Source: Isurus oxyrinchus (Eukaryota). From it: DNA of 64,000 bases. Positions 4,389-47,186 of this stretch are shown in pieces. The notes beneath the pieces were generated by a model. It did no database searches. It worked only from the letters and a program-made list of their open reading frames with translations, and was not told the DNA's origin. The DNA lies in NCBI GenBank assembly GCA_026770705.1, contig JANJGN010000009.1, positions 138,756,001 to 138,820,000 of the forward strand. The letters are read 5' to 3'. A program made the translations under genes and the position numbers. Position 1 is the stretch's first letter. Every line of letters begins with the position of its first letter.

Positions 4389-4655
4389 GGGCAGAATCGT
4401 CCCAGATTTGCACAAAGTGCGGTAGCGGTTGTTTTACCCGTCGGCTGCAATGGCGGCTTTTTACACTGTATTGTTCCAAACCCACCACATTAATTATGCA
4501 TTCCCAGGAAATACGCTGTTTCCATGGTGGGCGGGCTTTCATTTGCCTGCCCTACCATCACCTCACCGTTTCATCATGCCAGGCACCATAATTAAAATCC
4601 AGCCACATCACATCTTTCACTGTTTCCTGTCCATGACTGCTGCATGGAGGACAGG

Positions 4656-6120: not shown

Positions 6121-6559
6121 GGCCAACGAGTGATTCTGGATGGAGAAGTGTGTGTGTGTGGGGCAGGGCCTTTTGCAGACTCGTGCAAGCCCACTCCCAT
6201 GTACGCGGATTCTTTCGGTATCACAATCACCTCAATATCCTGAGCATTTTCATTGCTGCCTGCTGATGTTCACTTTCAATTGTCCATCTGAGCTGACCTG
6301 CATCTCCGCCCACCCGATGATCACACTCCCATGAAGCACCTGATCTCACCCATCACGACTGTTGTTTCACTTTCAATTTGGATATCATGGTCTGGATTCA
6401 CTTTTTCATCAGCTCCCCCATCCTTTCCCCTCCACCAGTCACACATTTCCTTTCCCCATCATAGTTGACCTCCCTGGCATCACCTTCCACCTCCCCTCTG
6501 TGACCTACCAGCCACAACCCTTTTCTTTTGGGGATGTCCAGCTGAACATCACATTCTAG

Positions 6560-7834: not shown

Positions 7835-10405
7835 CATAGTAATAGAGTCATAGGGTCATAGAGATCTACAGCACAGCAAAAGGCCCTTCAATCCATTGAG
7901 TCTGCGCCAGTCCAACAAGTGCCTAACTATTCTAATCCCATTTTCCAGCACTAGGCCCATAGCCTTGTATGCCATGGCATCGCAAGTGCACATCCAAATA
8001 CTTCTTAAATGTTATGAGGGTTTCTGCCTCTACCACCCTTTCAAGCAGTGAGCTCCAGATCCCCACCACCCTCTGGGTGAAAAGGTTCTTCCTCACATCC
8101 CTCTAAACCTCCTGCCCCTTACCTTAAATCTATGCCCCCTGCTTACTGATCCCTCCACCAAGGGGAAAAGTTCCTTCCTGTCTCCCTATCTATGCCTCTC
8201 ATAATTTTATATACCTCAATCTCCTCTGCTCCAGGGAAAATGACCCCAGTCTATCCAATCTCCTCATAACTAAAACTCTCCAGCCCAGGCAACATCCTGA
8301 TAAATCACCTCTGCACTCTCTCTAGTGCAATCACATCCCTCCTATAATGTGGATTCCAGAGCTGCATGCAATGCTCTAGCTGTGGCTGAACAAGCATTTT
8401 ATACAGTTCCAGCATAACCTCCTTGCTCTTATATTCTATGCCTTGGCTAAAAAAAGGCAAGAATCCCGTATGCCTTCTTAACCACCTTATCTGCCTGTCC
8501 CGATACCTTAAGGGACCAGTGGATTTGCATACCAAGGTCCCTCTGATCCTTGGTACTTCCCAGGATCCTACCATTCATCGTGTATTCCTGTACCTTGTTT
8601 GTTCTGTCCAAGTGCATCACATCACACTTGTCCGGATTAAATTCCATTTGCCACTGATCAGCCCATCTGACCAGCCCATCTATATCCTCCTGTAATCTAA
8701 GGCTATCTTCATCACTATTTACCACCCACCAATTTTTGTGTCATCCGTGAACTTACTGATCAACTCTCCAACATTCAAGTTTAAATCATTTATATGTACC
8801 ACAAACAGCAAGGGACCCAACACCGATTCGTGTGGAACCCCACTGGACACAGGCATCCAGTCACAAAAACACTCCTTGAGCATCGCTCTCTACTTCCTGC
8901 CACTCAGCCAATTCTGGATCCAATTTGCCAAATTGCCTTGGATCCCATGGGCTCTTACCTTCATTATCAGTCTCCCATGTGGGACCTTATCAAAAGCCTT
9001 GCTGAATTCCAAGTAGACTTCGTCAAATGTATTGCCCTTATCTAGACACCTGGTCACCTCTTCAAAAAATTCAATCAAATTGGTCAAACCTGACCTCCCG
9101 TTAACAAAACCGTGCTGACTGTCCTTAATTAATCCCTGCCTCTCCAAGTGTAGATTAATTCTGTCCCTCAGAATTGCTCCCAATAGTTTCCCCACCACTG
9201 ATGTTGGACTGACTGACCTGTAGTTCCCTGGTTTATCCCTTCCTCCCTTCTTGAATAATGGTACCACATTGGCTGTCCTCCAGTCCTCTGGCACCTCTCC
9301 TGTAGCCAGACAGCTTTTGAAAATTATTGCCAACGCCCCTGCTATCTCCTCTCTTGCCTCACTCAACAGCCTGGGATACATTTCATCCGGGCCTGGAGAT
9401 TTATCTACTTTTAGGCCTGCCAGACCACTTAGAACCTCTTCCCTTTCTATGCTAATTTCTTTAATTACATCACAGTCCTTCTGTCTGATTTCCATACTCA
9501 CATCGTCCCTGTCATTTGTAAACACCGACACAAAGTATTCTTTTAGAACCCTACCTAAGTCTTCCAGCTCCACACACACATTACCACTATGGTCCTTTAA
9601 TGGGTCCTCCTCTTTCCCTAGTTATCCTCTTACTCTTAATGTACTTGTAAAATAACTTTGGATTTTCCTTTATTTTACCTTCCAATGTTTTTTCATGCTC
9701 CCTTTTTGCTCTCCTAATTTCTTTTTTAAGTCCCCCCCTACACATTCTATACTCCTCTAGGGCTTCCGCTGTTTTGAGCCCTCAGTATCTGCCATAAGCC
9801 TCCCTTTTTCTCTTTATCCATTCCTGTATATCCCCAGACATCCAGGGTTTTCTGGATTTGTTGATCCCACCCTTTTTCTTTACTGGAATATGTTGGCCCT
9901 GTACTCTCCCTATTTCCCTCTTGAATGAGTCCCACTGCTCTGATGCAGATTTACCTAAAAGTAGCTGCTCCCAGGCCACTCTGGCCAAATCATATCTGAT
10001 CTTATTAAAATCAGCCTTCCCCCAATTTAAAACTCTGATTTCTAGCCCATCCTTTTCCTTTTCCATAACAACCTTGAATCTAGTGGAGTTATGATCACTA
10101 TCTGCAAAATGTTCCCCTTCTGATACCTCTACCACTTGCCCAGCTTCATTCCCTAAAATTAAATCCAGGGCCACTCCCTCTCTTATACTGGCTTAAAAAG
10201 CTCTCCTGGATGCATTTTAAGAATTCCGCTCCCTCCAAACCTATCCCACAATGACTAACCCAGTTAGTGTTGGGGAACTTGAAATCCCCCACTATTACTA
10301 CCCTATTATTTTTACACTCTCTGAAATTTGCCTACATATCTGCTCTTCTATTTCTGTTTGAGGGCCTGTAGTACACTCCCCGCAATATGACTGCTCCCTT
10401 TTTGT
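7835..10405 (-). mobile_element. CR1 LINE, 5'-truncated ORF2 (APE C-half + RT) with 3' tail, nested in Harbinger A
   Basis: ORFs 8890-9579 (KSPGPDEMYPRLL, PEDWRTANVVPLFKKG, PGNYRSVS, SQHGF, FSKAFDKVPH), 8447-8725 (LQEDIDGLVRWADQWQMEFNPDKC) and 9782-10174 (LDLILGN...SDHN); tcatag repeat tail at 7835. Confidence 0.95.
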
Positions 10406-13225: not shown

Positions 13226-14799
13226 ACGGTTTCAAAGTCTAGTTTCAAGGTTATTTTATATCAGTGTGAATTGGTAACTTTGCATTTCAGGAACATGGGA
13301 AAAGCCCTGCTTTTGGTCAAAAAATTGCTCCTTTGTCAGGGGCCAAGCATTTTGTACATTATAATTAATGAAGATTTGCTACAGTGAATATTAAAAAGAA
13401 AATCTATTCCAGATGACTGTCAATGAAAACATTTATGGGTGAAAGAGGGAATGGGAAAGAGGAAGGTCAATTCTCTACAAGTAACAAAAAAAGACCAATC
13501 CAGAGAGACAAATTGCTTACTCACCAGAATCTACCTTGCTATAGATACCAATAATTTGGTTTAGCAGAGGGTGGCAGATTGGCTTTTGGGCTGTAAACAT
13601 TTTTAAGTGGATTTTTAGGAAAGTTTGGTTGCAACTCGAGGTCAAGCTTCCAATTTGCAGAAGGAGAAATGTATTTCTGATGTTTTGATCTCAATCCTGG
13701 TGGGAATTTTGAGCTCTAAGTGACTCTAGTTGTATATTCCCAAGAAGGTTGGTTCATTTTTTTTTCAGTATTTCACTGGTCTGATTTATTTTAGGAAGCC
13801 ATTATTGTCCTTGCCATAGGTATGTTGTTGGACTTTCTGGAAAATGTAATACTACTTTGTTAAATTGAGTAATGGCACAGAAGTACACTTTAAAAAGATT
13901 TAAAAATAGATTCAATTCCTTGGGACTCAGTTCTGCAATTTTATCTGTTAATGGCTAGGGCAGAATTCTATGTTTACAAGTTAAGGAATAACATTGCAGA
14001 GAAATGGAATGTTTTCACATATCTTGCAACCTGTTTCAACGTGAAACACACTGACAGTCAATAAAAAATCTATGGAAAAGGCCTATCTATACTCGGGCAA
14101 CTATTAGGGGGGTGGGGGGGAGAGATATCATTTGCAACACATATTAAAGGTAGAACTGTATTATTCACAAATACATTTAATATTTAACTTCATTGCTGGC
14201 ACAATAAACATTATTTATTATTTCATGGTATGTGGACATCACCAGAAAGGTTAACATTTATTGCCCATCCTACCTGTTTTTGAGAAAGTGAAGGTGAGCC
14301 ACATTCTTGAACTGCTGAACTGGTGAAGGTACTCCCACATGGCTGGTATATAGGGAGTTCCAGGGTTTTCAGCCAGTAATGAGAAAGTAATGGTGATAAT
14401 TTTCTTAAGTCGGCTGGGGAGCCTATAGCTGAATGTGTTCCCATGCACCTGTTACCCTTGTCCTTCCAGGTGGTATAGGTCACAGGTTTAGGAGGTGCTG
14501 TTAAAAGAGCCTTGCTGAGTTGCTGCACAGCATCTTGTAGATGGTACACACTCCAACCACAATGCACTGGCAGCGGAGGGAGTGAATATTTAATGTGCTA
14601 GATGGGACGCCGATGAAATGGGCTTCTTTGTCCTGGATATTGTTAAGCTTCTTGAGACTTGGTGGAACTATGCTTATCCAGACAAGTGGAAGAATATTCC
14701 ATTATACCCCTGACTTGTGATTTGTGGCTGATGGAAAAACTTTGGGGAGTCATGAGATGAATACCATGCCTTAACCTGCTCTTGTAGTCATTTGTTTAT

Positions 14800-15509
14800 G
14801 GGCAGGATTTTGTCCATGGCGATCCCTCCTCTGCTCAGGCAGGGTACCCCACAGTCATTTCACGCATGGCAGGGCATTAAATGGCTAATGGTAAGACTGT
14901 GCCCCCACCGGGGAGAAAATTTTGCCTCTGAGGGCTGCCAATCAAATAGCAGATGATCTCTGGCCCCAGCATTGCCATCGGGAGTGGTGGCCATTGCTGG
15001 GACTGCATCCAATCCCAACAGCAGGAAGTCATGGAGCCAGACAGGGAGCTAAGTTGGATTGGTGGGTGGGGGTTATGCAGTGGGGCTCGGCTAAGTAACC
15101 CTTGTAAGAGGGGCAAGGGACATGGGGGCTGGAGTGCACAGGCCATGGGGAGGGAAACCTGAGGCGACAAACCTTGTGGGGGCTCCAACAGGCCGAGGGG
15201 GGGGCTATAAAGGAAGAATCCCCCTCCTTTACCACTAATAGCCTGAGGAATGAGACCTGGCAGGATTCAAACATGGCTCCAGCCTCCACCCTCACAGAAA
15301 AAATTGTGACAGAACAATTAATTACACAGTTAAGGGCCTCAATTGGACTAAGAGTGGGTGGGCTACCCAAAACCATCACTGTGGTGTGTAAAATTGGTGG
15401 ATTGTGTACAGAGTGGGTGGGTAGGTGCCAGGAATGGTGCTCATGGCATTACACACCCCACCTCCAAACCACCTACCAATCTGCCTCCAGGGAACATAAA
15501 ACTTTGCCC
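14800..15509. mobile_element. Harbinger-type MITE inserted in LINE
   Basis: TIRs gggcaggatttt / aaaactttgccc; 3-bp TSD tat on both sides; LINE sequence rejoins across it. Confidence 0.85.
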
Positions 15510-17248
15510 TATGTGGCTAGTATAGTTACATTTCTAATTAACAATGAACTCAAGGATATAGATGCTGGGGATCAGATGATGGTAATATGTTTAATGTCCA
15601 GGAGAGCTGTTGGGCCCTCTCTTCTTGGAGATGGTTATTGCTTGCCACCTGAGTGGTGCAGTTGTAGCTTGCCATTTAGCAGCGCAAGCCTGAATGTTGT
15701 CCAGATCTTGTTGCATTGCAGGCATGGACTGGATCATTAAGAAAAGCTGTGAATGGAACTGTCCAATCATCAGCAAACATCTAACTGATGATTTTATGAT
15801 GGAGGTAGGGTCATTGCTGATACAGCTGAAGATGGTTGGATCTAGGCCACTAATCTGAGGAATTCCTACAGTGATTCCTTGGGCTGAGATTATTGGCCTC
15901 CAACAACACAACCATCTTTCCTTTGTGCTAGGTATGACTCCAGCTAGTGGACAGTTTTCACTGATTCAAATTGACTTCAATTTTGCCAGGGCTCCTTGAT
16001 GCCATTCTCATCAAAGATTACTTTGTAGTCAAGGGCAGTCACTCTTACTGTTTGGACCAAGGTCGTAATGAGGTCTGGAACCAGGTGGTCCTAGCAGAAC
16101 TCAAACTGAGCATCAATAAGCAGGTTATTGGTGAGTAAGTACCCATTGATAGCACTGTCAACAACCATATCCATCACTTCGCTCATGATTGAGAGTTGAC
16201 TGATAGTGCAGTAATTGGCTGGATTGGATTTGTCTTGCTTTTTTGTGGACAGGCCATACCTGAGCAATTTTCTACTTTGTTGGATAGATTCCAATACTGT
16301 AGCTGTACTGGAACAGCTTGACTAGCCTACTTGACCTTGTCCTCACCAATTTTACCTGTCACAGATGCAACTGTCCAGGAAAGTATTGCTGAAGTAACCA
16401 CCACACTGTCTTTGTGGATTGAAGTCCACAATGAGATACACTCCGTTGTGCTGTGTGGCACTATCTAACAAAATCATACTTTCCAGCCAAAGTCCCAGAC
16501 ACCCCAGCACCACCTCTACACCAATGGGACAGGGCATTCCTACCTGAGGTGGCAGCACAGTGGTATACAGTCAAGAAGGAGTGGTCCTGCAAGTCCTCAG
16601 CCTTGTTCTGGAGCACAAATCTTTAGCATTACAGCCAGAATGTTATCGGTGCCACTAGGCTTTACTTTCTCCATGCCCTCAGCCATATCTTGATTTCATA
16701 AGAACTGAGTTGGATTAACTGAAGTCTGCCATCCGTGATAGTGAAGATCTCAGGAGGAGGCCAAAATGGATCACCCACTTGGCACTTCTGGCTGAAGATG
16801 GTTGCAAACCTTTCAGCCTTGTCTTTGGCATTGATGCCCAGGGCCCTGCCATCATTGAGGATGGAGATGTTCATGGAGTCTCCTCCTCCTTTCAGTTGTT
16901 TAATTGTCCACCATCATTCACAAGTGGATGTGGCAGGACAGAGCTTTGATTGGAACATTGATCTGATCCATTGGTTATGGAATGGCTTAGCTCTGCCTAT
17001 AAGCATGCTGCTTCCATTTTTAGCATTCATGTAGTCCTGTGTTGTAGCTTTACCAGGTTGACATCTCAATATTCTGTATACTTGGTGGCGTACTTGACAT
17101 GCTGTTCTACGTTCTGCACTGAACCAGGATTAATCTCAGGACTTGATAGTGATGGTAGAGTGGGAGTTTTACCAACCATCAAGTTACAGGTTGTGGTAGA
17201 ATACAATTCTGCTGCTGATAATAGCACACAGCACCTCCTGGATGCCCA

Positions 17249-17874
17249 GGGTTGAATTTTATGTCCCGCGGGCAGGCATGTGCCTGACCTGATTGGGCAT
17301 AAAATCGCAGAAGACGTTGGGCGAGCGTGGGCATGTTCAAAAGTCGGAAGCGTGCCCGCCAACAATTAAGAGGCACAATTGTCTCCAATTTTACATGGCC
17401 CATCCAACCTTACAGTTGGCCGACGAGATAATCAGCCTTTGCAATTTTCATCAAACCTCAACCAAGGGCGTGATGAACTTTCCGTTATGAAATAAAATAA
17501 AAATAAGTATCTATGGGCAGCATCTTGATCAGCTATATTTTCAAGTGATTGATTGTGATGTATGGGCTTTTTTTTCAGCTTTCAAAACTTTCAATTGCTG
17601 ATTTTCAGGTCTGTGGTTCCCTGAGGCAGCCGTCTGCCTTCAGGGACCTTTCTCGCAGCGCTCAGCTGTGCCCACAGTGACATCATCACCCACCCTCTCC
17701 AAGCCCCTACCCTGCAGCACTGAGCATTTCAGCACGCATTTCACACTGGCTGGCCATTAATTTGTCAGCCGGTGCGAAATCAGGGCTGGGGGTCCAATTG
17801 CAGTCAGCAGTCCATTTCCTGACCCCTCCCGGGCCTGCCGATCAGGCACGCCTACCAAAGGTAAACCTCAGGCC
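17249..17874. mobile_element. Harbinger-type MITE (family of 30961 and 47187) inserted in LINE
   Basis: Starts gggttgaatttt; shares internal ccaacctta..gttgg and cctca..gatga motifs with the other copies; LINE rejoins gatgccca/gtttt. Confidence 0.75.
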
Positions 17875-18731
17875 TCAGTTTTAAGCTACTAAATCTGTTC
17901 TCAATGCATCCTGTTTAGCGTGGTGGTAATGTGACGCAACACAACAGAGCATATTTCACTGTGGCCTTCAACCCTTCAAGGCTTCAATATAGTGGTCACT
18001 CCAGCAATACTTTCATGGATAGTTGCATCTGTGACAGGTAAATTGGTGAGGACAAGGTCAAATAGGCTTTTTGCTTGTGTTGGTTGTCTGACAACCTGAC
18101 ACAGGCCCAGTCTAGTAGCTATGCTCTTTAGGCTTGGTTAGTAGTGGTGCTACCAAGACATTCTTGACAATGGACCTTGAAGTTCCAAGTCCAGAGTACA
18201 TTCTGTGCTCTTGTCACCCTCATCATTCCTTTCAAGTGGAGTTCAACATGGATGAGTACTGATTCATCTGCTGAGGGAGGGAGTAGGTGGTAATTAATAG
18301 GATATTTCCTTGCCCATGTTGGACCTGATGCCACGAGACTTTACAAGATCTGAATCAATGTTGAGACTCCCAGGGCTACTCCCTCTTTGTGCTGCTACCT
18401 CTAGTCCTGTCCCACTGACATCACTGGATGGTGATGTGGTGTGTGGGGCATTGGCTGAGAAGTACGATTCTGTGAGTATGATTATGTCAGGCTATTGCAT
18501 GATTAGACTGTGGTACATATTTCCCAATTGTAGCACGCCCCAGATGCTAGTAAAGAGGACTTTGCAAGGTTGACAGAACTGGATGCACCTGAGTCCAGTG
18601 CCTAGGTCAATGTTGATTTGATCTTTAGTATCGCAATCTGTGCCAGTTTTGATACAAATAAGTGGCTTTATAGGCCAGTTGAGAGGGCAGTTTAGAGTCA
18701 ACCACGTTACTGTGAGTCTACAGTCACACAA

Positions 18732-21700
18732 CAGTTAGAGCCTCTTCTCTTCCAGGAATGCCTACCTTGAACAAGTACTGCTCTTCTCTTTGACAGGATT
18801 TGCATTTGTCTCTTTTGCACTGTTCACCTTCATTCCTTTCCATTTCCCTCCTGGTAATTTGACAAGGTATTTACCAAAACTCACTTTCACAGCCATATTT
18901 CCTTTCTCAGCAACTGTCTCCATCTCCGACTTACCCCACATGGATTCCAATTGAAGTTCCACCCTCATGTATTGAATCCACCCAGGATTACAGGTATCTC
19001 CAGGACGTGCAACTTTCCTTGGACTGCTGTTCTTGCCGCATCCTGAGATCTGCACTCAGTGCCATGCGCCACCATATGAACACACTCAACCTCTCCCTCC
19101 AGCAGCATTGACTCACCCAACCTCAAACCTGTCCTTGTCCCCAGTTTCATTTTGTTCATCATCTCATCCGATGCCTTAACAAGAAACCTTTTCTCTTCCT
19201 TTCAGGTGTTAAGGAACACAAGCTCCAACAACTTATTACACCAACGCCCATCCAGGGGCCTCCACCCTTTCCCACCCCTCTGACCCCATCCCTTCTTCTA
19301 ATCCCAGCCCTCGCTGCATATTCATCATACTGTCTAACTTTCCTCTCTCTGATGATGAACATTCCGTACTCAACAAAGGACTCAGTTTCATATCCTTACA
19401 CCCTCACCTCAGTGAATTTCAGGCTTGGCACGATGCTGAACTCTTCTTCTGCTACCTTCGTCTCCGTGCTCACTTCTTTGGGCAGCAGTCCTCCCCACGA
19501 TCCCTGGACCCTTTCACCTGCCTCCAGTATTTTCCCTCCACCTGGACCTCCCTCTTTCTGGCCTCTTACCTGCTCTTGAACTTTTTATTGAGAACTGTCG
19601 GCGTGACATCGGTCGTCTCAATTTCCCTGCTCCTCTCACCCACTCTAATCTGCCTCCTTCTGAACACTGCATTCAATTCTTTTAGGTCCAACCCTGACTT
19701 TGTTATCAAACCTGCTGGCAAGTGTGGTGCTGTTGTTGTCTGGCGTACTGATATCTATCTTGCAGAGGCTAAGTGCCAACCCTCAGACACTTCTTCCTAC
19801 CTCCCCCAGAAAATGACCTCACCTCTGAACCTCTCGGACTGTCACTAATCTCATCTCCTCTGGAGATCTTCCCTCCACAGCTTCCAATCTCATAGTTCCC
19901 CAACCCCGGACAGCCCACTTCTACCTGCTTCCCAAAATCCACAAACAGGACTGTCCTAGTAGACCAATCATGTCAGCCTGTTCCCGCCTTGCAGAGCTAA
20001 TTACTTCCTATCTTGACTCCATTCTCTCTCCCCTGGTCCAGTCTCTTCCCACCTACATCTGCAATTCCTCTGATGCCCTACACCATATGAACAATTCCCA
20101 GTTTCCTGGCCCTAACTACCTACTCTTCACCATGGACATCCAATCCCTCTACACCTCCATCCCCCACCAGGATGGTCTGAGGTCTCTCCGCTTCTTCCCA
20201 GAACAGAGGCCTGAACAATCCCCATCAATTACTACTCTCCTCCATCTGGCTGAACTTGTTTTCTCACTGAACAATTCCTCCTTAAACTTGTCGCACTTCC
20301 TCCAAATACAAGATGTGGCCATGGGTACAGACATGAGCCCCAGTTATGCCTGTCTCTTTATGGGGTATGTGGAACATTCCTTGTTCCAGTCCTAATCAGG
20401 CCTTCTCCCACAATTCTTTTCTTGGTACATTGATGACTGTTTCGGTGTCACTTCATGCTCTCATCTGGACCTGGAAAAAGTTATCAATTTTATTTCCAAC
20501 TTATACCCCTCAATCAACTTCACATGGTCCATCTCCGACACTTCCCTTCCCTTCCTTGGCCTCTCTGTCTGATGATAGACTATCTACCAATATTAATTAC
20601 AAGCCCACCAACTCCCACAGCTACCTCGACTACAGCTCCTCACACCCTGCTTCCTGTAAGGGCTCCATCCCATTCTCTGAGTTTCTTCACTTCCGTCGCA
20701 ACTGTTCCAATGAAGCCTATTTCCAAAACGGCACTTCTGACATGTCTTCCTTCTTCCTTAACTGAGGTTTCCCAACCACTGTAGTTGACACGGCCCTCAA
20801 CCGTGTCCAACCCATCTCCCGCACCTCTGACCTCACACCTTCCCCTCCCTCCCAGAACCATGATAAGGTCCCCCTTGTCCTCACTTTTCACTCCACCAGC
20901 CTCCGCAATCAAAGGATCATCCTCTGCCAACTCCAGCATGATGCCACCACCAAACACATCTTCCCCTCATTCCCCTTGTCATCATTTCATAGGGACAATT
21001 CCCTCAGGGACACCCTGGTCTACTCCTCCATCATTCCCAACACCTCATTCCCTTCCCACGGCACCTCCCCATGAAATCGCAGAAGGTGCAACACCTGCCC
21101 ATTTACCTCCTCCCTCCTGTCTGTCCAAGGGCCCAAACATTCCTTTCAGGGAAGCAGCATTTCCCTTGCACTTCCCTCAATTTAGTCTACTGCATTCGCT
21201 GCTCCCAATGCAGTTTCCTCTACATTGGAGAGACCAAACGCAGACTGGGTGACCGCTTTGCCGAACACCTTCGGTCTGTCCGTAAGTGAGACAAAGACCT
21301 TCCTGTCATTTTCCATTTCAACATACCACCCTGCTCTCATGCCCACATGTCCGTCCTTGGCCTGATGCAATGTTCCAGTGAAGCTCAACCCAAACTGGAG
21401 GAACAGCACCTCATCTTCCGACTAGGCACCTTTCGGCCTTCTGGGCTTAACATTGAGTTCAACAACTTCAGACCATGATCTCTCTCCTCTATCTTCACCT
21501 CTTTTTAAGTCCCTTTTTAAAATTTATTGTTATTTTTATTTTTATTCATTTACTCATTGTTTTATCCCCTTTATGATCCTTTTTTTCTATTCTTTTTCCC
21601 CAATCACTGCCCCCGCCCCCCACCCAAGCCCCAAAAGGGCTATCAGTTACTTGTTCCATGTTGTCCTTTCGCAAAATGCTGACCCTTGTTCTGCTATTCA

Positions 21701-21970
21701 CACATTCTGCCACAAACAGCACCATCTTTAGTCCTTACCTTGACCATTAACACTCCCTTTGTCTTGTGTTCATGACATCTTTGTCAATGTCTCCTTAGCC
21801 CCCACCTATCGCCTACCTTGTATCCAGCCTCACCTGCTCCACCACCCTTAAACACTATAAATTTTATCACATTTCTACTTCTCTTTAGCTCTGAAGAAGA
21901 GTTGTGCAGATTCAAAACATTAACTCTGTTTCTCTCTCCACAGATGTTGTCAGACCTGCTGGGTTTTTCT
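18732..21970 (+). mobile_element. Penelope-like retroelement, near full length, decayed (RT + GIY-YIG endonuclease + pseudo-LTR)
   Basis: VIKPAGKCGAVVVW; ORF 19970-20395 LFTMDIQSLYTSIPHQDGL...AMGTDMSPSYACLFMG; YIDD at about 20425; GIY-YIG ORF 21071-21289 NLVYCIRCSQCSFLYIGETKRRLGDRFAEH. Possible 6-bp TSD acacaa at 18726-18731 and 21971-21976. Confidence 0.93.
21887..21925 (+). ncRNA. Minimal hammerhead ribozyme motif in Penelope pseudo-LTR (degenerate)
   Basis: agct-CTGAAGA-agagttgtgcagattc-aAAAC-att-aact; GAAA and ACGT decayed at CpG positions. Confidence 0.6.
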
Positions 21971-22210
21971 ACACAAAGGTCAGAATGGATACAGACAACA
22001 GATTTCCTCTCCTACAAGTCATCAATGAACCAGTTGAGTTTTTATGACAATCGAGCCATTCCAAGGTCATCATTATTGATTTTAGATTTTTATTTCAGAT
22101 TTATTTAATTAGCTGAATTTAAATTCCCCCAACTTTGAACTTCTATCTCTCAATTATTCATCCATGCCCCTGGGTTACTGGTCCAATAACATAACCACTA
22201 TGCTACCATA
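21971..22210 (-). mobile_element. tRNA-derived head + first part of Deu-domain body, contiguous with the LINE at 18731 once Penelope is removed
   Basis: Minus strand tatggtagcatagtggttatgttattggaccagtaaccc...aataaatctgaaataaaa...aggaaatctg; homologous to the SINEs at 26012 and 41097. Confidence 0.8.
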
Positions 22211-22708
22211 TGGTCTGTTCTAACATAGCTAATTCCTTACCCTTTTATGTTTCAATTGAATTTTAATATTTCAGTTAAGATAGAGCTTTAAGTTGTACCA
22301 TATATGACAGGTTTACAAGATTGAGTTACCAATTCCAAGAATTGGTCAGTACAGAACATTTCAGGAATAAAGAGCATTATATAAACAGTCCCATACCTTT
22401 TCCTCTTGATCCAGCATACAACACATCCTGTGTTAAGCCTAGTGACATTTAACTGAGGTAACTGAGTAGAGAGTTGGAAGAAACATCAGGTTATTCTATC
22501 TTTGTGTGACAAGCCTTGAATATATTGTGAAGCAAATATTAGAAAATCAATTCAGTCAGACTGCCTCCAATAAACTTTGCTTGTGTACCCTCTCTCCAAG
22601 AAATGTTAATGCTTGAATTTGATTCTACCGATTATTGATTTATCCCCAAAACCAGGGAAGCTACATTACAGACCTCCTTACTCACACAGCTACCTATTAT
22701 CAGTCTCT

Positions 22709-23158
22709 AAACAAAAACAGAATTACCTGGAAAAACTCAGCAGGTCTGGCAGCATCGGCGGAGAAGAAAAGAGTTGACATTTCAAGTCCTCATGACCCTT
22801 CAGCAGAACTAGGTGAATCCAAGGAGAGGGGTGATATATAAGCTGGTTTAAGGTGGAGGGGGGGCGGGGTTGGGTGGGGGATAGAAGTGGAGGGGGGTGG
22901 TGTGGTTGATGTAAGGTCTCCATCCCATTCTCTGAGTTTCTTCACTTCCGTCGCCCCTCCACTTCTCTCCCCACTCCACCACCTTAAACCAGCTTATATT
23001 TCACCCCTGTCCTTGGATTCACCCAGTTCTGCTGAAAGGTCATGAGGACTTGAAACGTCAAATCATTTTTTCTCCGCCAATGCTGCCCGACCTGCTGAGT
23101 TTTTCCAGGTAATTCTGTTTTTGTTTTGGATTTCCAGCATCTGCAGTTTTTTTATTTT
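22709..23158. mobile_element. Fold-back (inverted pseudo-LTR) Penelope derivative with 14-bp TSD
   Basis: Arms about 22709-22895 and 22955-23127 are reverse complements. TSD tattatcagtctct at 22695-22708 and 23159-23172. A hammerhead-like motif lies in each arm. Confidence 0.9.
23025..23063 (+). ncRNA. Hammerhead-like motif with variant core
   Basis: agtt-CTGCTGA-aaggtcatgaggactt-GAAAC-GTC-aaat; mirror copy on minus at about 22772-22810. Confidence 0.55.
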
Positions 23159-23201
23159 TATTATCAGTCTCTGCTCAGTTTCACCTCTATCAATTCCCCC
23201 G

Positions 23202-23870
23202 TAGAAACATAGGAAGAGGAGTAAGTCACTCAGCCCTTCAAGTCTGTTCCGCTGTTCAGTTCAACATGGCTGATCTGTGGCTTACATGCATCCTTCTATT
23301 GGTTTTGTAACTATTAATACCCTCCTCTTCTTCCTTCATGTAGCACGCCCTAAGAGGCGACCATGGACTTCCATTGGATTGATCCATAATTATGCTTGGC
23401 AAAGTACTGTAGTAGTTTGCCATTGCCTATAGCTGTATGGCTGACCGGGAACCTCTCCTGCTCTTACCATCTGCCATCAGGCATATTGGAAGGATTTATA
23501 GGCTGCTAATCAATCTGTTTGGCTACGTTATGAATGTACGGCTATGTTATGAATGTACCTTCCATGGTCATCAAATCCGGAAATGGGACTTGAACCTGGA
23601 GCTTCTGACACAGAGGTAGGAATACTACCCACTTCCCACAACACCTGCTTTAATACCCTAGCCCAACAAAATTCTATCAATTTCAGTTTTGCCATTTTCA
23701 CCAGTTTTTTATAGGTGGGTGATGGGAAGTGGGAAAGTGGGAAGTGGGTGGGGGAGGAGAGTTCCAAATTTCCACTGCCCTTCATGTGAAGAAGTGTTCT
23801 TTGACATCACCCTTGATTGGCCTAGCTCTAACTGTAATATTATGCCCTCTTGTTCTGCACACTCAAAATA
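23202..23870 (-). mobile_element. CR1 3' fragment, interrupted by a SINE
   Basis: tagaaacataggaagaggagtaagtcactcagcccttcaag... resumes after 23650 with gagagttccaaatttccactgcccttcatgtgaagaagtg. Confidence 0.75.
23324..23649 (-). mobile_element. tRNA-derived SINE with RTE-like tail, 10-bp TSD
   Basis: A-box-like tgtgggaagtgg and B-box ggttcaagtcc at the 5' end; gcaatggcaaactactacagtactttgcc (RTE/Bov-A-like motif); gaa-rich end; TSD ttaataccct at 23314-23323 and 23650-23659. Confidence 0.75.
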
Positions 23871-24818
23871 TTTATTACTCCCCTGTCCCCGCTGTTCTTA
23901 GTCCTCCATCTCACAGGTAGTCAAGTTTGCTCTCATTGATTATTGTCAGTAGGCTTGAGTGTTCTCGGGTATCTCCGAGGCATCTTTACTTCTGCTTTTG
24001 ACCAATGTGCATGAAACCGCTGCTGTTTAAGGTGGGTTCACGTTTCTTCATTAAAATTTGTGTTGCAGGTTCCTACTTTTATAAATGATAACTGGCATCG
24101 CCATCTTACATCATTACCACCCAAATGCTGATCTCTCAAATCACTAAAAAAAGACTTGCTTAGTTGGTAAATAAATACCATTTTCCACCACATTAGTCAA
24201 CAATAAATATTCTACCAATGTCCCCTGTTATGCAGACAATGTTCCTAGGACTGACCACCAACAATTAAACAACACCGAGTAACCTTGGAAACATACCATG
24301 ATCCTTAGCTCAGCATTGCAGGTACAAAGCAGCAACATATGGGAAATGACTGAATTTGCTATCTGTATATAAAACAAAAATTCTGTTAAACAGAACATAC
24401 ATGATCACTCTAAATATTATTTATCACAAACATTAAAAACGACTTATTGGTGTAAATAATACCAAAAGCTCAATATTGCACTTGGGGGCTGGGGTTGGGG
24501 GATTGTTTGGAGGGTAGATGGTGGGAAGGGGGGAGGGGTGGAATTTCAGCTCTCAACGATGAATGAATTTCAAACTCAAACACAATCTCCCTCAGACCCT
24601 CCCATTTCGGGTTTTAGTGGAGACGAGTTGGAGGATGAGATTAGGAATGAATAATCTGCTCTCAGGAGCTGTTTGATCAGGAAAAGCATTCTATTTTAAC
24701 AGCATTAAACTTGGCAGGTAAGAGACAAGAACAGCTGTGTTCATCATGTAAGTGCATTTCCAGCACTTATTGTGGGATATTACCAGCAGGGGTGTTTCCC
24801 CTGCTCCAAGAAGATTAC

Positions 24819-24930
24819 CCTCTGAAGAAGGGTCATATGGACTCAAAACGTTAACTCTGATTCTCTCTCCACAGATGCTGCTAGACCTGCTGGGTTTTTT
24901 CCAGCATTTTCTGTTTTTGTTTCAGATTAC
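24819..24930 (+). mobile_element. Penelope pseudo-LTR fragment beginning at the hammerhead core
   Basis: CTGAAGA-agggtcatatggactc-aAAAC-GTT-aactctg...ccacagatgctgctagacctgctg; matches 21891-21970. Confidence 0.85.
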
Positions 24931-25107
24931 TCCTGGCAATTGGCCAATCCCCTCCCATCTGCAATCTCTGACTCCCATCCCAACCTCCCAATTCTCCAGC
25001 TCAAACTCTGACTGCCCCATGATCTCTGACTGACCCCTTCCAACTCCATGATCTACTTACCTGGCATGCACCTCCTGGCTGCTTTCCAGCTTTATAAGCA
25101 ACCAGCC

Positions 25108-25515: not shown

Positions 25516-26011
25516 ATCAAGCTGGCTGTTGTGCGGGGAATCTACTAAAAAATAGACATCCTGTTGTTAATTTCAATGGCAATTCTGGGATCCAGGTTAG
25601 TTGAAGTCTGGTATCCTGTCCTGAAAGCCTCCCTCCTGCCCTCTTCCCAGTATTGCCTAAAAATCGTGCCCTTTGTTCCAGCAAATGAATAAAATCTAAA
25701 TAGAAGCAATTTCAACCAGTTACCAAGAGAAGTTTGATTTTGGTTAGAGAAACATCAGAGGAAAAATAACGTTCTGTTCGGCTTGGTAAAGTACAAAATA
25801 AAACCCTGAAAATTGGCAGACAGCACAAAATCATTTGAAAGAAATTCGAAAAGGCTACAGCAAGTGCAGCAACTGAATTGTCACAAGCCTCAATTAACCA
25901 TCTCAGCAATGTATTCAAAGAATCCTTACTCTACAATTTTGACTCTCACTCATGCTAAACATTTGTTGCCATGAACAATGCCAAGTAAAATGGGCAAATG
26001 TCACTCAGTAC

Positions 26012-26290
26012 CTTAATGCTGTGGGTCTAGAGTCACATGTAGTCCAGCGCAGGTAGGGGCAGTGGAATTCTTTCCCTGAAAGGCTGTATTGAATCAGATG
26101 CATTTTTTTGATAATCTGATAGTCTCATGGCCCCTCTTACTTACACTAGCTTTTTACTCCATATTTATTTAATTAATTGAAGTTAAATTCCCCAGCTGCT
26201 CTGGTAGAATTTGAACCCACCTTTCCGGATTATTAGTCCAGACCTCTGGATTACTAGTCCAGTAGCATAAGGATTATGCTATCATTCCCG
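26012..26290 (-). mobile_element. tRNA/Deu-domain SINE (SacSINE1-like), partial
   Basis: gctgtgggtctagagtcacatgtag... Deu body; head reverse complement ...gaatttgaaccc...ggattactagtccagtagcataa. Confidence 0.8.
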
Positions 26291-27192: not shown

Positions 27193-29580
27193 GCATAAGA
27201 ACATAAGAAATTGGAACAGGGGTTGTCCATACTACCCTTTGAGCTTGCTCTGCCATGGAATATCATGATTGACTTGATCATGGCCTTAACTGCACTTCCC
27301 TGCCTGTTCCCCATAACCCTTGACTCAGCTATAGTTCAAGAATCTGTCTATCTCAGCCTCGAATATACTCAATGTCTCACCTCCATTGCTCTCTGAGGTA
27401 GATAATATGAAAGAATCACAACCCTCTGAGAGAAGGCATTCCTCCTTATATCTGTCTTAAATGGGTGATCCTTTATTCTGAAACTATTCCCCCTAATTAT
27501 AGATTCCCCCAAGAGGGAAAATGTCCTCTCAGCATCTAACCTGTCAAGGCCTCTTGTATGTTTATACAAGTTACATATGTTTCAATAAGGTCACCTCTTG
27601 TTCTTCTAAATTCCGATAAGTACAGGCTTAACCTGTGTAACCTTTCCTCTTAAAACAACCCTTCATCTCAGGAATCAACCTATTTAACCTTTGCTGAACT
27701 GCCTCCAATGTATCGTCCTTAAATAGGGAGACCCAACTGGACATAGTGCTCTAGGTCCTTTACGGTTGTATTTTATATTCCGTCCTCCTTGCAATAAAGG
27801 ACAACATTCCATTTGCCTTCCTAATTGCTTGCTGTACCTGCATGCTAATCTTTTGTACTTCATGCATGAGGACACCCAGCTACCTCTGTACTGCAACATT
27901 TTGTACTCTCTCTCCATTTAAATTATATTTTGCTTCTCTATTCTTCCTACAAAAGAGGAATCCTCACATTTTCCCACATTATACTTCATCTGCCAAATGT
28001 AATCCTGCTTACTTAACCTATCTATAATTCATTTGTAAACTCTTGGTGCCCTCCCCACAATTTGCTTTCCCACCTATCTTTGTACCATCCGCCTATTGAA
28101 TACCTTTTGGAAATTCAAATATACTACATCTATTGATACCCTTTACCACCCTATTGTTACATCTTCCAAAAACAAAAATAAGTTTGTCAAACATGATTTC
28201 CTTTTCATAAAACCATGTTGAGTGTGCCTGATTGTATTATGATTTTCTAAAAATCCTGCTAATACGTTCTTAATACTGTAATGGATTCCAGCAGTTTCTC
28301 ATTGACAGCTGTTTGGCCTACTGGCCTACATGTTCCTCCTTTCTTGAATTGGTGTGCTACATTTGTGGTTTGCCAATCCACAGGGACCTTTCCAGAACTT
28401 AAGGAATTTTGGAAGATTGCAAACAATGCATTCAATATCTCTTCAGCCACTTCTTTTAAGAAGGCCATCAGGTGCAGGGGACTTTTTAATGTTTAGTCCC
28501 ATTCCCTAGTACTTTCTAGTAATTATTTTAAGTTGCTCCCTCCCTCTTGCCTCTTGATTTCCTACTATTCTTGGGATATCTTTTGTATCTTCCATTGTGA
28601 AAACAGATGCAAAACATGTGTTCAAAGTCTCTGCCATTTCCTTGTGCCCCATTATTAATTCCCTACCCTCACCCTCTAAAGGACCAATGCTCCTTTTGAT
28701 ATACTTGTAGAAACTTTTACTGTCTGTTTTTATATTTCTTGCTAGGTTTCTTTCATACTCTAATTCCTCCCTCTTTATTTTTAAGTCATTATTTGCTGAT
28801 TTGTAGAATGCTCCTATTAATCTTTGCAGCAATGTATACCTTTACTTTCAACTTGATACCATCCTTAACTTTCTTGCTTAGCCACGGATTGTTTGTCCTT
28901 CTCATAGAGCCTTTCTCAATGGAATATATCTTTGTTGAGAGTTGTGAAATATCTCCTTAGATGTCTTCCACTGCTTCCCTACTGTTTTATCTTTTAACCT
29001 ATTTTCCTAGTCCATTATAGTCAACTCAAAATCTTAAATTTAGGATTCAGACCCACATTTCTCACCCTCAAAGTGAATGTGAAATTCTACAATGTTATGA
29101 TCACTCTTACCTTAAGGATTCTTTACTATGAGGTAATTAATTAATCCTGTCTCATTAGAAATTACCAGGTCTAAAATAGCCTGTTTTCTGGTTGGTTTCA
29201 GAAATATATTATTCCAAGAAATTGCCCCAAATATACTGTATGAACTCATCCTCTAAGCTAACTTTGCCAATTTGATTTGTCCAATCTATATGAAGATTAC
29301 AATTACTCATGAACTTTATAGTGCCTTTCTTACAAGCCCCTGTTATTTCTTGATAAATCGGTCTGTCCTACAGTGGTGTTAGGGGCCCTTTGAACCATTC
29401 CGAGCAGTGACTGTTTTCCTTTGCTATTTCTTATCTCCACCCGAACTGATTCTATACCTTGATCTTCTGAGCCATGATCATTTCTCACTACTGTACTAAT
29501 CTCATCCTTCATTAGCAATGCAACCCCACATTCTCTTCCTTTTGGCCTATGCTTCCAAATTATCAAGTATCCCTGAATAT

Positions 29581-29713
29581 TTTTTTAAAATTCATTTACA
29601 GGATGTGGCTAGGCCAGCATTTATTGTCCATTCCTAATTGCCCTTGAGAAGGTGGTGGTGAGCTGTCTTCTTGAACCACTGCAGCCTCTGTGGTGTAGAT
29701 ACACCCACAGTAC
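29581..29713 (-). mobile_element. 3' tail of Deu-SINE-partner LINE inserted in CR1
   Basis: ggatgtggctaggccagcatttattgtccattcctaattgcccttgagaaggtggtggtgagctg. Confidence 0.8.
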
Positions 29714-32210: not shown

Positions 32211-34107
32211 CCTGTGGGCCTAAAAAACCCCAAGTCTTCCTTTATTGGAATCATGCCATATTTATCTTATCGATGTTTATCTTCTATGCAAAGAGATGTA
32301 AACCACACATTCCTCTTATTAAATGAGGCTGAAATCCTCAATGGCCAAACTGATGATTGCAGGGATTCCTCTCAGTAAGATCTTTTAAACAAATCCCTCC
32401 TTCTAATCTTGATAGTAGGTTTAACTTCCAGAATTGGATTGTTTAGATCTTGAAAATATATCACTTGACCCAAATCTCAACTTTCTAATTCCAGTGTCAG
32501 ATGTCAGTGCTAACAGCGTAATAACACTTTTTTTTAATGAAGTCTGGCTTTAAACAAAGTAGCATTTGCTTTGCTACAGTGCTATATTTGCATAGTGCAA
32601 ATTGGGTGCCAATGCCCCAAAATGACTCCAAAGCATAGCAGAGGGACCATCTCCAAACTAAGGAATTTTGGCCTAGTGTCAGGTTGGATCCCGACTCTAG
32701 ATTCACATCAACACTATGTTATTGTTATTGCATTATATGCTTTTATATTCTCCTAACTTTCCAATCTATCAAATTTTCACTACCTTAACGATGGGAACAT
32801 TCTTGTTTCTCCATGCAGTGTTTGCAAGATTAAAAAAGTGTTGATATTTTAGATCACTAGTCCAATTTGTAAGTAATTTGACAAGTGTGAATTCTGCTTA
32901 GCTCAGACGAGACGTAAAAAATATTAAGCAAAACAAGACTCTTTGGATCGTAAATTTTAGAAAACTTATTAAAGAAAAGATATACTTAAGAAATTTAGGA
33001 CAATGACTTCTGCAGCTTCAGCCAGTTGTGCATTCTGTTGAAGTGTAGGTCACAGGACTCACCCTCTCAGGCCTCTGGTCTGGTCTTGAACCAATTTGCA
33101 GAGAAAAATACATGGTTCGTACTCCGGAGTCTCCAAAGTCTGGCCAGCAATGAAACTTTATGGAACCCATCTTTTTAACTCCAGGATGACCGTCACACCA
33201 TGTCAGAGTCAGTCTATAGTTGGTTTAATGATTGGCTCTAGCTGTTGCTAAGTAAATTTGGATGCCTTTCACTTGTATCTTCCCGCCTGAGACTACTTGG
33301 CCTCAGTATCTCAAACAGGAATATAATGGGCTAATTTCTCACTCTTCCTTGACATGATTTTGAACAACTCTTCATTCAATAAGCTAAACTCTTGCAAGGC
33401 CATGGTGTATTATCTCACAGACCTTATCAGGATTTCAAAAGGTTCCCCGCTTTGTGCAGATTCAGCTGAAACTGCACTTTCTCATGAGAGAGAGAGAGAG
33501 AGGGCAGAATTTTCCATTCTGGGGACTAAGCCTGGTAGCAGAATTGGAAGCCACAAGAGTGGAACACCCACAACCTTGTACTGTTTAGTTCATTAATTAT
33601 GCAGCTATGAGGAGTATGTCAAATCTTATGGTGTGGGGGCCTGGAATTGGCCCACTCCACTGTCACCTTATAGACTTCAACATCTAGGCACCATTTTTAA
33701 TCAGCACCCAGGCAGCCATTCACTCTCTGCAGGCCAAGGCCTCCAGATTCTGTGAAAGAAAGTGTCGAGGAGAAGGCAGCATCCTCTGGTCCCACGGTTC
33801 AGCAATGCCTACCTGGCGATTCTCCTCCAGGCAGCCGAGGGAAGGTGGGAGGTCCTCTTTCCAAGGGATAGGTGGCGGAGGCCCTTCTGTCTGAGCCCGC
33901 AGCCTGGGAGGAGATTGCCAGGGCAGGGAGGGCCCGTGTGGTCCAAAGGAGGACTGCCCTGCAGTGCAGGAAATGGATAAATGATCTCATCCACTCCGCT
34001 GGGGTAAATCAAACTTCTACACACTGCAAACTCATACTCTCATAAATCTAAGGGTTAGAGTCCACAGGGATGTCATACACAATCAGCAGATGGGACATCA
34101 GCCCTGA

Positions 34108-35487
34108 TTTTTTTTAATTCTTTCACGGGGATGTGGGTGTCGCTGGCTAGGCCAGCATTTTTGTTGCCCATCCCTAATTGCCCTTAGAAGGTAGAGCTGC
34201 CTTCTTGGACCATTGCAGTCCATGTGATACAGGGACACCTACAGAGCTGTTAAGGAGGGAGTTCCAGGGTTTTGACCCTGCAACAGTGACAGAATGGCGA
34301 TGTATTTCCAAGTCAGGATGGTGAGTGGCTTGGAGGGGCAATTCCAAGTAGTCATGTTCCCATCTATCTGCTGCTCTTGTCCTTCTAGATGGTAGCAATT
34401 ACGTGTTTAAAAGGTACTGTCAAAGGAGCTTTGGTGAGTGGCTGCACTGCTTCTTATAGATGGTACATACCTGCTGCCACTGTGCTTCAGTGGTGTGGGA
34501 GTAGATGTTGAAGATGGTGTTTGGGGTGCCAATCAAGTGGGCTGCTTGGACTTGGATGGTGTCGAGATTCTTGAGCTTTGTTGGAGCTGCACTCAGCCAG
34601 GCAAGTAAAGAGTATTCCATCACACTCCTGACTTGTGCTTTGTAGATGGTGGACAGGCTTTGGGGATTCAGGAAGTGAGTTGCTTTCAGCAGAATTCCTA
34701 GCCTCAGACCTGTTCTTGAGGCCACAGTATTTATATGGCTCGTCCACTTCAGTTTATGGTCAATGCTACCCCCCAGGATGTCGATATTGTGGGATTCAGT
34801 GATTATAATGCTATTGAGTATAAAGGGGTGATGGTTGGCCTCTCTCTTGTTGGAGGTGGCTGTTGTCTGGCACTTGTGTGGCACAAATGTTAGGTTGCCA
34901 CGTATCAGCCCAAGCCTGAATGTTGTTTAGGTCTTGCTGTGTATGGGCATAGACTGCTTCAATATCTGAGCAGTCGTGAATCCTCCTGAACATTATACAT
35001 TCATCAGTGACCATTCCCACTTCTGACCTTATGATGGAAGGAAGGTAATTGATGAAGCAGCTGAAGATGGTTGGACCTAGGACACTATTCTGAGAAACTC
35101 ATGCAGTGGTGTTCTGAGGCTGAGATAATTGACCTCCAACAACTACAATCATCTTCCATTGCCCTAGGTATCAGACCAACCGTTGGAGTGTTTTCTCCCT
35201 CATCCTCCTTTTTGTCTGGTTTTGCTAGGTCTCTTTGATGCCACATTCAGTCAAATGCTGCCTTGATTTCAAGGGTAGTCACTTTTACTTCACATCAGCT
35301 CTTTTATCCAAGTCTGGACTAAGGCTGTAATCAGGTTAGGAGCTGAGTGGCCTTGGCGGAACCCAAGCTGAGCATCAGTGTGCAGGTAGCACTGTCAATG
35401 ACATCGTCTATCACGTTGCTCATGATTGTGGCTACACTGATGGGGCAGTGATCGGCCGGGTTAGATTTGTCTTGGTTTTTGTGGACC
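34108..35487 (-). mobile_element. CR1-clade LINE (Deu-SINE partner family), 5'-truncated, inside Harbinger C
   Basis: ORF 34420-34884 (ILGGSIDHKLKWTSHINTVAS...TIYKAQVRSVMEYS), QQDLNNIQAWADTWQ; SINE-shared tail at 34108. Confidence 0.9.
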
Positions 35488-40759: not shown

Positions 40760-42180
40760 GATCCCATCAATTATGGGATCTGCTGGTGAAGATTGTAGAA
40801 TTTTCTGAATAGCTACCCACAAGTGCATCCCTCATTTGACCAATGCCATGTTTGCCAGGGCTGACATCTATGTACATTTCACATCCAAAGAGACCAGTCA
40901 GAATGAGCCAGCACTCTACTTTTGCCATTCTTGCGTGCTTTTCAGAGGCCCTTTCACTTTTGCGGCCATCAAAGGACTGTCAGATCACCCTGGAATCTTC
41001 ATCAACTGTGAGGTTCTGCTCCATCAATGTTCAGCTCAACCGCAACCACCATAAGATCATCATATATGTCCACGTCAAATTCCAAGAACTGGGGAAGGTT
41101 GGTGGCATAGTGGTATTATTGTCACTGGACTGGGAATCCAAAAGACCCAGGGTAATGATCTGGGGACCTGATCAATTCCCATCACAGCAGATAGTGAAAT
41201 TTGAATTCAATAAAAATAAATCTGGAATTAAAAGCCTAATGATGATGAAATAGTATTGTAAAAAAAACCCATGCCCTTTAGGGAAAGAAATCTGCCATCC
41301 TTACCTGGTCTGGCCTACATGTGACTCCAGACCCACAGCAATGTGGTTAACTCTTAAAATGCCCTCTAAACAAGGGCAATTAGGGATGGGCAATATATGC
41401 TGACTTAGCCAGTGACACCCACATCCCATGAACAATTTTTTTTTAAAAGAGTGATGCATAAACACTGCACCAGTCAAAGCTTCTGAAGTTATTCACTTGA
41501 AGCTGAGTTGGTAATAGAGTTATAATTCAGCAAGCAATCCAGATGCCTGGAGTGATTCGGGAGCATTCCTTCAGTATGTCAGTCCAGTGTTGTAGCCTGC
41601 TGCGCCTTGCACAATATTGTGCAGCATTGAGGGGTGGAGGAAGAAGGTGATATGGTGAAGGATACAGCTACTGCATACATGGCTACTGGGAATGCCCAGG
41701 CCAGTATGATTCAGTTGTACTCTGTCAAACTGAGGCATTGCAGCCAACTGGCACATAATATTGGAACTCACAGTGTTGCCTGCCCTAGCCTACAACAAAT
41801 AAACAGCCTCACCTTCACGATTTCATTCCTTTCACAGACACCCATTTAACTCTTGCCCTCCCATTCTAAGTGCTTCAGGAGAGAAAGAGACAGACAGGAT
41901 GGTGCGATGGTGACTCTCACCACACTAAGTACAGGATGTTCCCCCTCTTCCAGGTCTTGGCCACCTTGATGTCGAATGCTGCATCTGAGAACCTGTGCAC
42001 CCTGTCCATTGGCCATTCTACAATGTGCTGCCTGTGCCAAAAAGGGCACTTCACATCTTCAGTGGCAGTGGGTGCAAGGAGCCCACATGCTGCTTCATGA
42101 CAATTACATCTAATAGGCACTTGAGTACGAAACTACAGATGTCTGGTTTAGCAACTCGAGGCAAGTTCAAATTATAGTAA
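40760..42180 (+). mobile_element. Harbinger relic D: transposase (+) with convergent Myb start (-)
   Basis: AMFARADIYVHF...FCSINVQLNRNHHKII (40836-41085), VVACCALHNIV (about 41590); minus-strand MDRVHRFSDAAF at about 41970-42010. Confidence 0.7.
41097..41448 (+). mobile_element. Full-length tRNA/Deu-domain SINE (SacSINE1-like)
   Basis: ggtggcatagtggta head; Deu body aaatctgccatccttacctggtctggcctacatgtgactccagacccacagcaatgtgg; LINE-shared tail gggcaattagggatgggcaat...cccacatcccatgaa. Confidence 0.9.
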
Positions 42181-47082: not shown

Positions 47083-47186
47083 GACCACCGCCGCCCCCCC
47101 CCCCCACCCCACCCCACCTCCTCCCTCCTTGGATGCCCAGTGTACTTTATTATCCCTTCTACATCATTTGAATAACCAGATACAAG

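Follow-up and report, generated by a model that had tools for sequence, protein, structure and literature searches.

What kind of element carries a head resembling a transfer RNA (tRNA) directly in front of the coding sequence of a long interspersed nuclear element (LINE)? The question is raised by the minus strand of 14222-22210 in a 64,000-nt stretch of the genome of the shark Isurus oxyrinchus (contig JANJGN010000009.1, positions 138,756,001 to 138,820,000; the window from here on). An initial annotation described this locus as a short interspersed nuclear element (SINE) of the Deu group fused to a CR1-clade second open reading frame (ORF2), lacking an ORF1 and split by a Penelope insertion. 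The analysis presented here indicates with high confidence that the locus, in its identity and its anatomy, is an old, broken member of the Zenon LINE of sharks and rays, a 3.3-kb retrotransposon with a single ORF. As to the head, its sequence makes it a candidate promoter from which RNA polymerase III (Pol III) may well transcribe the entire element, a reading held tentatively and just short of probable.

Membership of the Zenon family rests on DNA identity with the 5' 400 nt of named consensuses. When the consensuses in the supplement of PMC13343379 were compared over the first 400 nt of each, the succession of head, body and LINE-only sequence was found in 7/7 elasmobranch Zenon rows (CarCar_Zenon-1, ScyCan_Zenon-1, RhiTyp_Zenon-1, HypSab_Zenon-1 and SquAca_Zenon-1/2/3), which cover five species, and a head was present in 0/3 of the hagfish and coelacanth Zenon rows over the same span, where their 5' ends may be incomplete. 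Since all seven have the head-to-body junction, it is a trait of the family. The idea of the initial annotation that this could be a LINE family with a Pol III-type head as its own 5' end is thus supported, the junction being neither unique to the locus nor replaced in the family by an ordinary ORF1 and 5' untranslated region (UTR). According to the same supplement, these consensuses resemble the locus in 5' sequence from the head to the endonuclease start, in a length of ~3.3 kb and in an A tail, and have one ORF for an apurinic endonuclease and a reverse transcriptase (RT) with no ORF1, as at the locus; no structural difference was seen, the locus being a decayed member. Moreover, a 19-nt and a 23-nt motif from the published Zenon consensuses were found at 18594-18612 and 18538-18560, each with 2 mismatches and a chance mean of 0.00, and the head at 22210-21971 resembles the start of SquAca_Zenon-1 when compared by eye. 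Once its four inserts are removed, the copy measures ~3,130 nt and consists of the head, a short 5' region, one endonuclease-RT frame and an A-rich tail; five of the seven consensuses measure 3,244-3,314 nt, and all seven span 2,886-3,314 nt.

The absence of ORF1 noted earlier holds, the distance from the head start to the endonuclease start being ~400 nt without the Penelope insert, which leaves no space for one. It is not surprising, however, because Zenon elements, reported in PMC13343379 from five sharks and rays, universally lack ORF1 and end in poly-A. The LINE is already catalogued as a consensus (2026, PMC13343379); in Table S3 of that paper, the long copies of each family number from hundreds to thousands, of which few have an intact frame (for example 3/612, 0/2,313 and 1/1,419). 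In its main text the word 'tRNA' has 0 matches and 'SINE' 1, in a reference, and neither the head and the short form nor a Pol III promoter and a scarcity of T runs are brought up there. Visual inspection of the elasmobranch Zenon rows of that supplement (~nt 345-400) suggests that the ATG closest to the start of the endonuclease is out of frame with it, which would imply a short overlapping upstream ORF and an unusual initiation.

The Penelope insertion at 18732-21970, with its acacaa duplication, was borne out: its removal restores a continuous head-body sequence, and it contains RVT_1 (E 5e-05) and GIY-YIG (E 3e-04) matches, both under the Pfam curated cut-offs. Three further inserts, at about 17249-17874, 16332-16603 and 14800-15509, had not been listed, and ORF2 is not intact, being interrupted throughout by many stops and frameshifts. 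When ORF2 was mapped with P0053, a LINE protein of 962 residues, and with a profile built from eight such proteins, remnants of endonuclease, linker, RT and C-terminal region followed one another in order along 18280-14276; in tblastn, residues 134-223 of P0053 fell on 18280-18021, in the endonuclease region. The proposed run through RT to a tail shared with the short element at 41097-41448 therefore stands for the ordered remnants to ~14276, but the decayed tail has no direct blastn match to that of the short form, and the link between the two is made through other copies. Pfam gave no match in the two endonuclease pieces of the Zenon copy that were tested, RVT_1 exceeded its Pfam cut-off in a sister Zenon copy of the window, and a BLASTP comparison of the junction peptide with P0053 was not significant. 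Poly-A tails are seen in the Zenon copies at 34.1k and 44.5k and in the loose ends of reads behind 41432; the tail of the locus itself is A-rich and decayed. Also, the target-site duplication expected of an element with head and tail was found neither around the whole copy at 14222-22210 nor around the short form at 41097-41448. The coordinates are collected in Table 1.

Table 1. Parts of the Zenon locus, its inserts and the related copies in the window.
Feature	Position	Strand	Remarks
Zenon 5' end: tRNA-like head and first part of 5' region	21971..22210	-	A box 22205-22195, B-box-like 22140-22132
Penelope-like element within Zenon 5' region, opposite orientation	18732..21970	+	ACACAA at 18726-18731 and 21971-21976
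Remainder of Zenon 5' region	18565..18731	-	common to short form to ~18678, then LINE-only up to endonuclease start
Decayed apurinic endonuclease region of ORF2	17875..18564	-	PDIIILTESY motif; consensus motif; tblastn
Later insertion resembling a miniature inverted-repeat transposable element (MITE), approximate ends	17249..17874	.	breaks colinearity; similar to 47355-47765 and 31260-31368
ORF2 linker region	16604..17248	-	profile positions 274-452 on 17153-16606
Inverted inserted piece of Zenon endonuclease, approximate ends	16332..16603	+	opposite-strand similarity to 17927-18068 (80%) and 18388-18476 (70%)
Decayed reverse transcriptase region	15510..16331	-	profile positions 455-709; 67% DNA identity to copy 34732-35486
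Later MITE-like insertion	14800..15509	.	short terminal inverted repeats and ATA duplication
ORF2 C-terminal region, stop codon ~14272-14270, short 3' UTR, A-rich end	14222..14799	-	profile positions 757-928; aligns with three further copies
Third copy of the head, lacking its 3' part	26010..26290	-	anticodon-like arms as a tandem pair
Zenon copy truncated at its 5' end, extending from RT to A tail	34107..35486	-	
Short form: first ~274 nt of a Zenon LINE and its last ~78 nt, meeting at 41370/41371	41097..41448	+	A box 41103-41113
Further Zenon copies	44459-46352 and 29576-29710		first one split by an insert

The short form is a multi-copy element made of the two ends of the Zenon LINE, and in this respect a short internally deleted element (SIDE). 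Its body matches the long copy (18728-18678 against 41320-41371, 82.7% identity over 52 nt in blastn), and its tail, which begins four codons before the ORF2 stop, comprises the last four ORF2 codons, the 3' UTR and the A tail, with 88-89% identity to the Zenon copies. When raw reads from the genome of a related organism (run X21, ~3% read) were mapped on 40940-41600, the depth was 0-2 in the flanks, ~20,000-25,000 on the short-form body and 32,000 on the tail. At 41357-41358, 8,546 reads depart from the short form and carry on into LINE 5' sequence, as found at 18690-18660 of the long copy, and 16,542 enter the short form at 41371 from LINE 3' sequence; the loose ends are 30 letters only, and some of the reads classed as LINE-type could come from a longer short form. 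The depth of 5,550 at 41368 is an upper bound for junction-crossing reads, as some LINE reads align up to the junction. Contigs bridging the junction with at least 31 letters on each side were 7/8 of those listed for X1, 5/8 for X16 and 2/8 for X17, the listed pieces being the longest of ~96,900 and X16 and X17, presumably RNA contigs, serving for presence only. In the three organisms these contigs mostly carry 16-25 or 9-21 other letters and are therefore other copies of the short form.

By eye, the head of the short form is of the white shark/catshark type and that of the long copy of the dogfish type, and consequently the short form comes from the Zenon family and not from this long copy. 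The earlier claim that the short element is made of the ends of the long one thus holds at the level of the family and fails for this copy, whose head belongs to another subfamily. It is likely, judging from the head types, that the short form derives from a later Zenon subfamily, which favours, for this short form, the direction from LINE to SINE.

The head is tRNA-like by its boxes and by a weak profile match. A pattern of A box followed by B box had 2 matches in the window, at 41103 and 22205, which are both heads; the chance mean was 0.08 per shuffle, and 0/200 shuffles reached 2. Across 80 loci of related LINEs (306 kb in all) the same pattern had 0 matches, and six B-box strings matched 5 rows of a CR1-group table of 1,004 rows, all of them elasmobranch Zenon. 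The heads at 22210, 41097 and 26290 align with a mean column identity of 73%; the B box of the short form is decayed, and reads carry other letters there. Two near-identical anticodon-like stem-loops occur in the third head (26245-26262 and 26222-26240, minus strand), the first with the loop CTAGTAA and AGT at the anticodon position, and the second anticodon-like arm is not the same in dogfish-type consensuses as in those of the white shark type.

RNA polymerase III terminates at runs of four or more T, so that a LINE read through by this enzyme should avoid such runs on its sense strand. In eleven Zenon pieces amounting to 6,351 nt, 6 sense-strand runs were counted, base composition predicting 17.0 (P 0.002), with A runs at 34 against 39 expected in the same pieces. 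Three canonical CR1 copies of equal T content have 32 T runs in 6,878 nt, the rate test against Zenon giving P 3e-5. Moreover, 4/4 of the coding-region T runs that can be aligned to other copies are private to one copy; of the other 2 runs, one has a counterpart of three T and one lies where no copy aligns, and a three-copy majority has 0 T runs in 1,362 columns (161 ambiguous). In metagenomes, 80 loci of related LINEs had a median ratio of observed to expected runs of 1.18, with 3/80 at or below the 0.45 of Zenon; among the 39 of at least 2 kb, none fell under 0.64, compared with 0.45 for the Zenon coding pieces. Also, by eye, TTTT occurs within the first 400 nt of 0/7 elasmobranch and 3/3 hagfish and coelacanth Zenon rows in the PMC13343379 supplement.

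The T-run scarcity fits transcription by Pol III but does not prove it. If Pol III is indeed the polymerase, the element may have arisen as follows. In an elasmobranch ancestor, the head would have come to a Zenon element through a template switch to a tRNA or SINE RNA. Its internal A and B boxes would be bound by TFIIIC, so that the promoter would travel with each full-length copy. Selection would have removed TTTT stops, Pol III reading ORF2 and the A tail into a T run of the flank; the ORF2 protein would recognise the 3' end of this RNA and copy it by target-primed reverse transcription. Finally, short passengers that keep the promoter, 41097-41448 among them, would arise through internal deletion. 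The picture as a whole, that is, an abundant, autonomous coding LINE made from end to end by Pol III, with terminators purged from a 2.9-kb frame, translated without a cap and repeatedly yielding SINEs by internal deletion, is put forward with somewhat greater reserve than the proposal for the promoter.

Several observations weigh against transcription by Pol III. The deficit of T runs loses strength under stricter nulls: a dinucleotide null gave P 0.12, a synonymous-codon shuffle 5 runs against 8.1 (P 0.11), and a version of that shuffle in which Phe codons were redrawn 5 runs where 9.9 were expected (P 0.046), which is modest. In the codon test, from which 11/80 related loci were dropped for having <1,500 in-frame nt, 2/69 control loci were as low as Zenon or lower. 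Furthermore, the deficit begins at three T (22 against 38.5) without a sharp step at four, C runs are also thin at three, stretches of 1.2-3 kb free of TTTT occur in other repeats of the window, and the Zenon copies, belonging to one family, are not independent samples. With respect to the head, the box pattern came from a consensus and was written after the heads had been inspected. The top Rfam match of the third head (26290-26010) is indeed tRNA (RF00005) on the right strand, but a weak one at 15.9 bits against a gathering threshold of 29 (E 0.66), and the heads at 22.2k and 41.1k had no tRNA match in Rfam. With ARAGORN, no tRNA turned up in the window, nor in the 36/80 related loci submitted to it; relaxed thresholds gave 174 calls at 70%, which are noise and were set aside. 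None of the folding z-scores, computed for three heads and three tails, reached significance, the heads folding no better than their shuffles. The weak point of the proposal, finally, is the translation of an uncapped RNA, for which the several LINE clades that cut their own 5' ends by ribozymes (PMC5786205) offer a loose precedent as users of uncapped templates.

The same anatomy would be expected if the full-length LINE were made by RNA polymerase II (Pol II), either from the 5' region or by read-through, with Pol III working only on the short form and the head being a captured RNA structure or an aid to Pol II. We regard this as a serious possibility, though not as a probable one. It is generally held that every LINE studied relies on Pol II (PMC10886601, PMC5786205) and that Pol III limits RNA length (PMC10886601). 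The lepidopteran Zenon and its short form are described as having spread without Pol III boxes (PMC6740152), and the modest deficit of T runs under codon-aware nulls points the same way. On the other hand, sharks and a ray have kept A and B boxes at the extreme 5' end, and the scarcity of T runs extends along ORF2, far beyond the part that is common to the short form.

The order of events could also be the reverse, the short SINE being ancestral: a tRNA SINE with a Zenon tail would have joined a 5'-truncated Zenon ORF2, recombination or gene conversion then keeping SINE and LINE alike. The head is absent from hagfish, coelacanth and lepidopteran Zenon in the sources at hand and so was gained from elsewhere, and many SINEs are partnered by Zenon in bivalves (PMC11481361); a SINE may well have been the source of the first capture. 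Nonetheless, we consider a SINE origin of the whole element improbable. The white shark/catshark-type head of the short form is one of two LINE head types, as expected if the short form was cut from a later subfamily, and its junction is 6 nt shorter in organism D, a difference that points to deletions made separately or at a later time. PMC6740152, moreover, documents that Zenon has given rise to such short forms repeatedly.

A fusion of a Deu-SINE of the SacSINE1 type with a CR1 ORF2, as the initial annotation proposed, is very improbable. DeuSINEs (SacSINE1, EbuSINE2, SINE2-2_CM and AmnSINE1) are similar to the short form in size and in having a tRNA-like head in a shark genome, and a 10-nt string, TGCCGTCCTT, is common to the Zenon body and the Deu core. 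However, two Deu core motifs taken from EbuSINE2 and SINE2-2_CM (PMC5786205 supplement) and allowed <=3 mismatches had 0 matches (chance 1.0) and 4 matches (chance 2.1) in the window, none of them in heads or bodies. With both motifs missing from both elements, the Deu domain was rejected as the body, and the best interpretation of that body is the Zenon 5' region. DeuSINEs also seem to differ in LINE partner and tail: that of SacSINE1 is common to L2-2_CM (PMC5499810), unlike the A-tailed Zenon end. The Deu/SacSINE1/AmnSINE1 label could therefore not be maintained, nor could a bearing of this locus on the origin of the Deu domain. Least probable of all is a one-off junction left by a SINE that landed beside a truncated LINE at this locus: no target-site duplication surrounds the whole element, but the identical junction in all seven published consensuses (PMC13343379 supplement) rules out chance, and the 8,546 reads of the related organism leave the short form here into LINE-type sequence.

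Searches for relatives in viral and metagenome contigs gave no copy of a 27-nt body pattern and no match in a profile scan of the viral contigs, and two word-index protein searches found no match, which is weak evidence. Two related LINEs are worth describing. L001 (1076-3901) is a close non-shark relative with a poly-A end, headless and without the A/B-box pattern, having a normal TTTT count (17 against 16 expected). L056 (2,037 nt, with a GAA-repeat tail and its 5' end missing) has no TTTT in 1,809 in-frame nt, its Phe codons being 4 TTT to 16 TTC. Within the RT region of the long copy, the inverted endonuclease fragment (16324-16559) is nearest to 17927-18068 of its own copy (80%), other copies reaching ~68-70%; its two parts stand in swapped order, and it is perhaps a local inverted duplication. 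Other repeats of the window comprise MITE-like repeats with GGGC...GCCC ends (14800-15509, 17249-17874, 31174-31585 and 47182-47765), canonical CR1-type LINE copies (1-2071, 7893-10317 and 27194-29852, the last containing the Zenon 3' fragment 29576-29710) and short inverted pairs of Penelope-type end sequence (22702-23161, 24798-24935 and 62302-62544). Another repeated element, ~60% alike among its copies (4390-6127, 52398-54409, 33946-34100 and 35485-35927), has very long TTTT-free stretches on both strands. An assembly gap of 139 N lies at 48652-48790.

Several known systems come close to the one described here. In the Persaeus SIDE of Lepidoptera (PMC6740152), the short form consists of the Zenon 5' end joined to the ORF end, 3' UTR and poly-A, as here, and arose by repeated internal deletion. 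However, as described there, Persaeus lacks both homology to tRNA and a Pol III promoter, retains the ORF start and has a 5-bp direct repeat at its breakpoints; no such repeat is seen at the shark junction. Bov-tA, AfroSINE and SINE2-1_ACar, from RTE and Vingi LINEs (PMC5786205), combine a tRNA head with a 5' and a 3' part of a LINE, again as here, but in their case the head was added to a deleted derivative and the parent LINE is described as headless, whereas in shark Zenon the autonomous parent itself has the head. Precedent for such a piece within a LINE exists, since RTE-1_DAn and elements related to it are said to contain tRNA-like sequence (PMC5786205). TRIMp3 elements (Cassandra, Helenus and Ajax; PMC10886601) are retroelements with a captured small-RNA Pol III promoter, as proposed for Zenon, although they are short, non-coding long terminal repeat elements and Zenon is a 3.3-kb protein-coding element of the non-LTR class. 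Thus the LINE family, the lepidopteran short derivative of Zenon and the sequence resembling tRNA within RTE-1_DAn are known. No description of the shark Zenon head, of its short form or of a LINE made by Pol III was found in the literature searched, including the available text of a shark-genome preprint (10.1101/2025.06.08.657570), PMC4824008, PMC3747384 and PMC11481361, a search outside which most subscription journals lie and which leaves an entry in Repbase or Dfam possible.

The usual division assigns LINEs to Pol II and SINEs to Pol III, and a 3.3-kb LINE with 5' A and B boxes and few TTTT runs is a direct and testable exception. If transcription by Pol III is true, Zenon would break this rule, show a one-step route from LINE to SINE and provide a natural case of cap-independent translation of a Pol III RNA. 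It would also give a second model for the birth of SINEs, by deletion within a LINE already equipped with the head, compared with the addition of a head to a LINE fragment (PMC5786205). Even under Pol II, tens of thousands of shark repeats resembling tRNA-SINEs are the ends of one LINE family, which matters for the annotation of both repeats and tRNAs.

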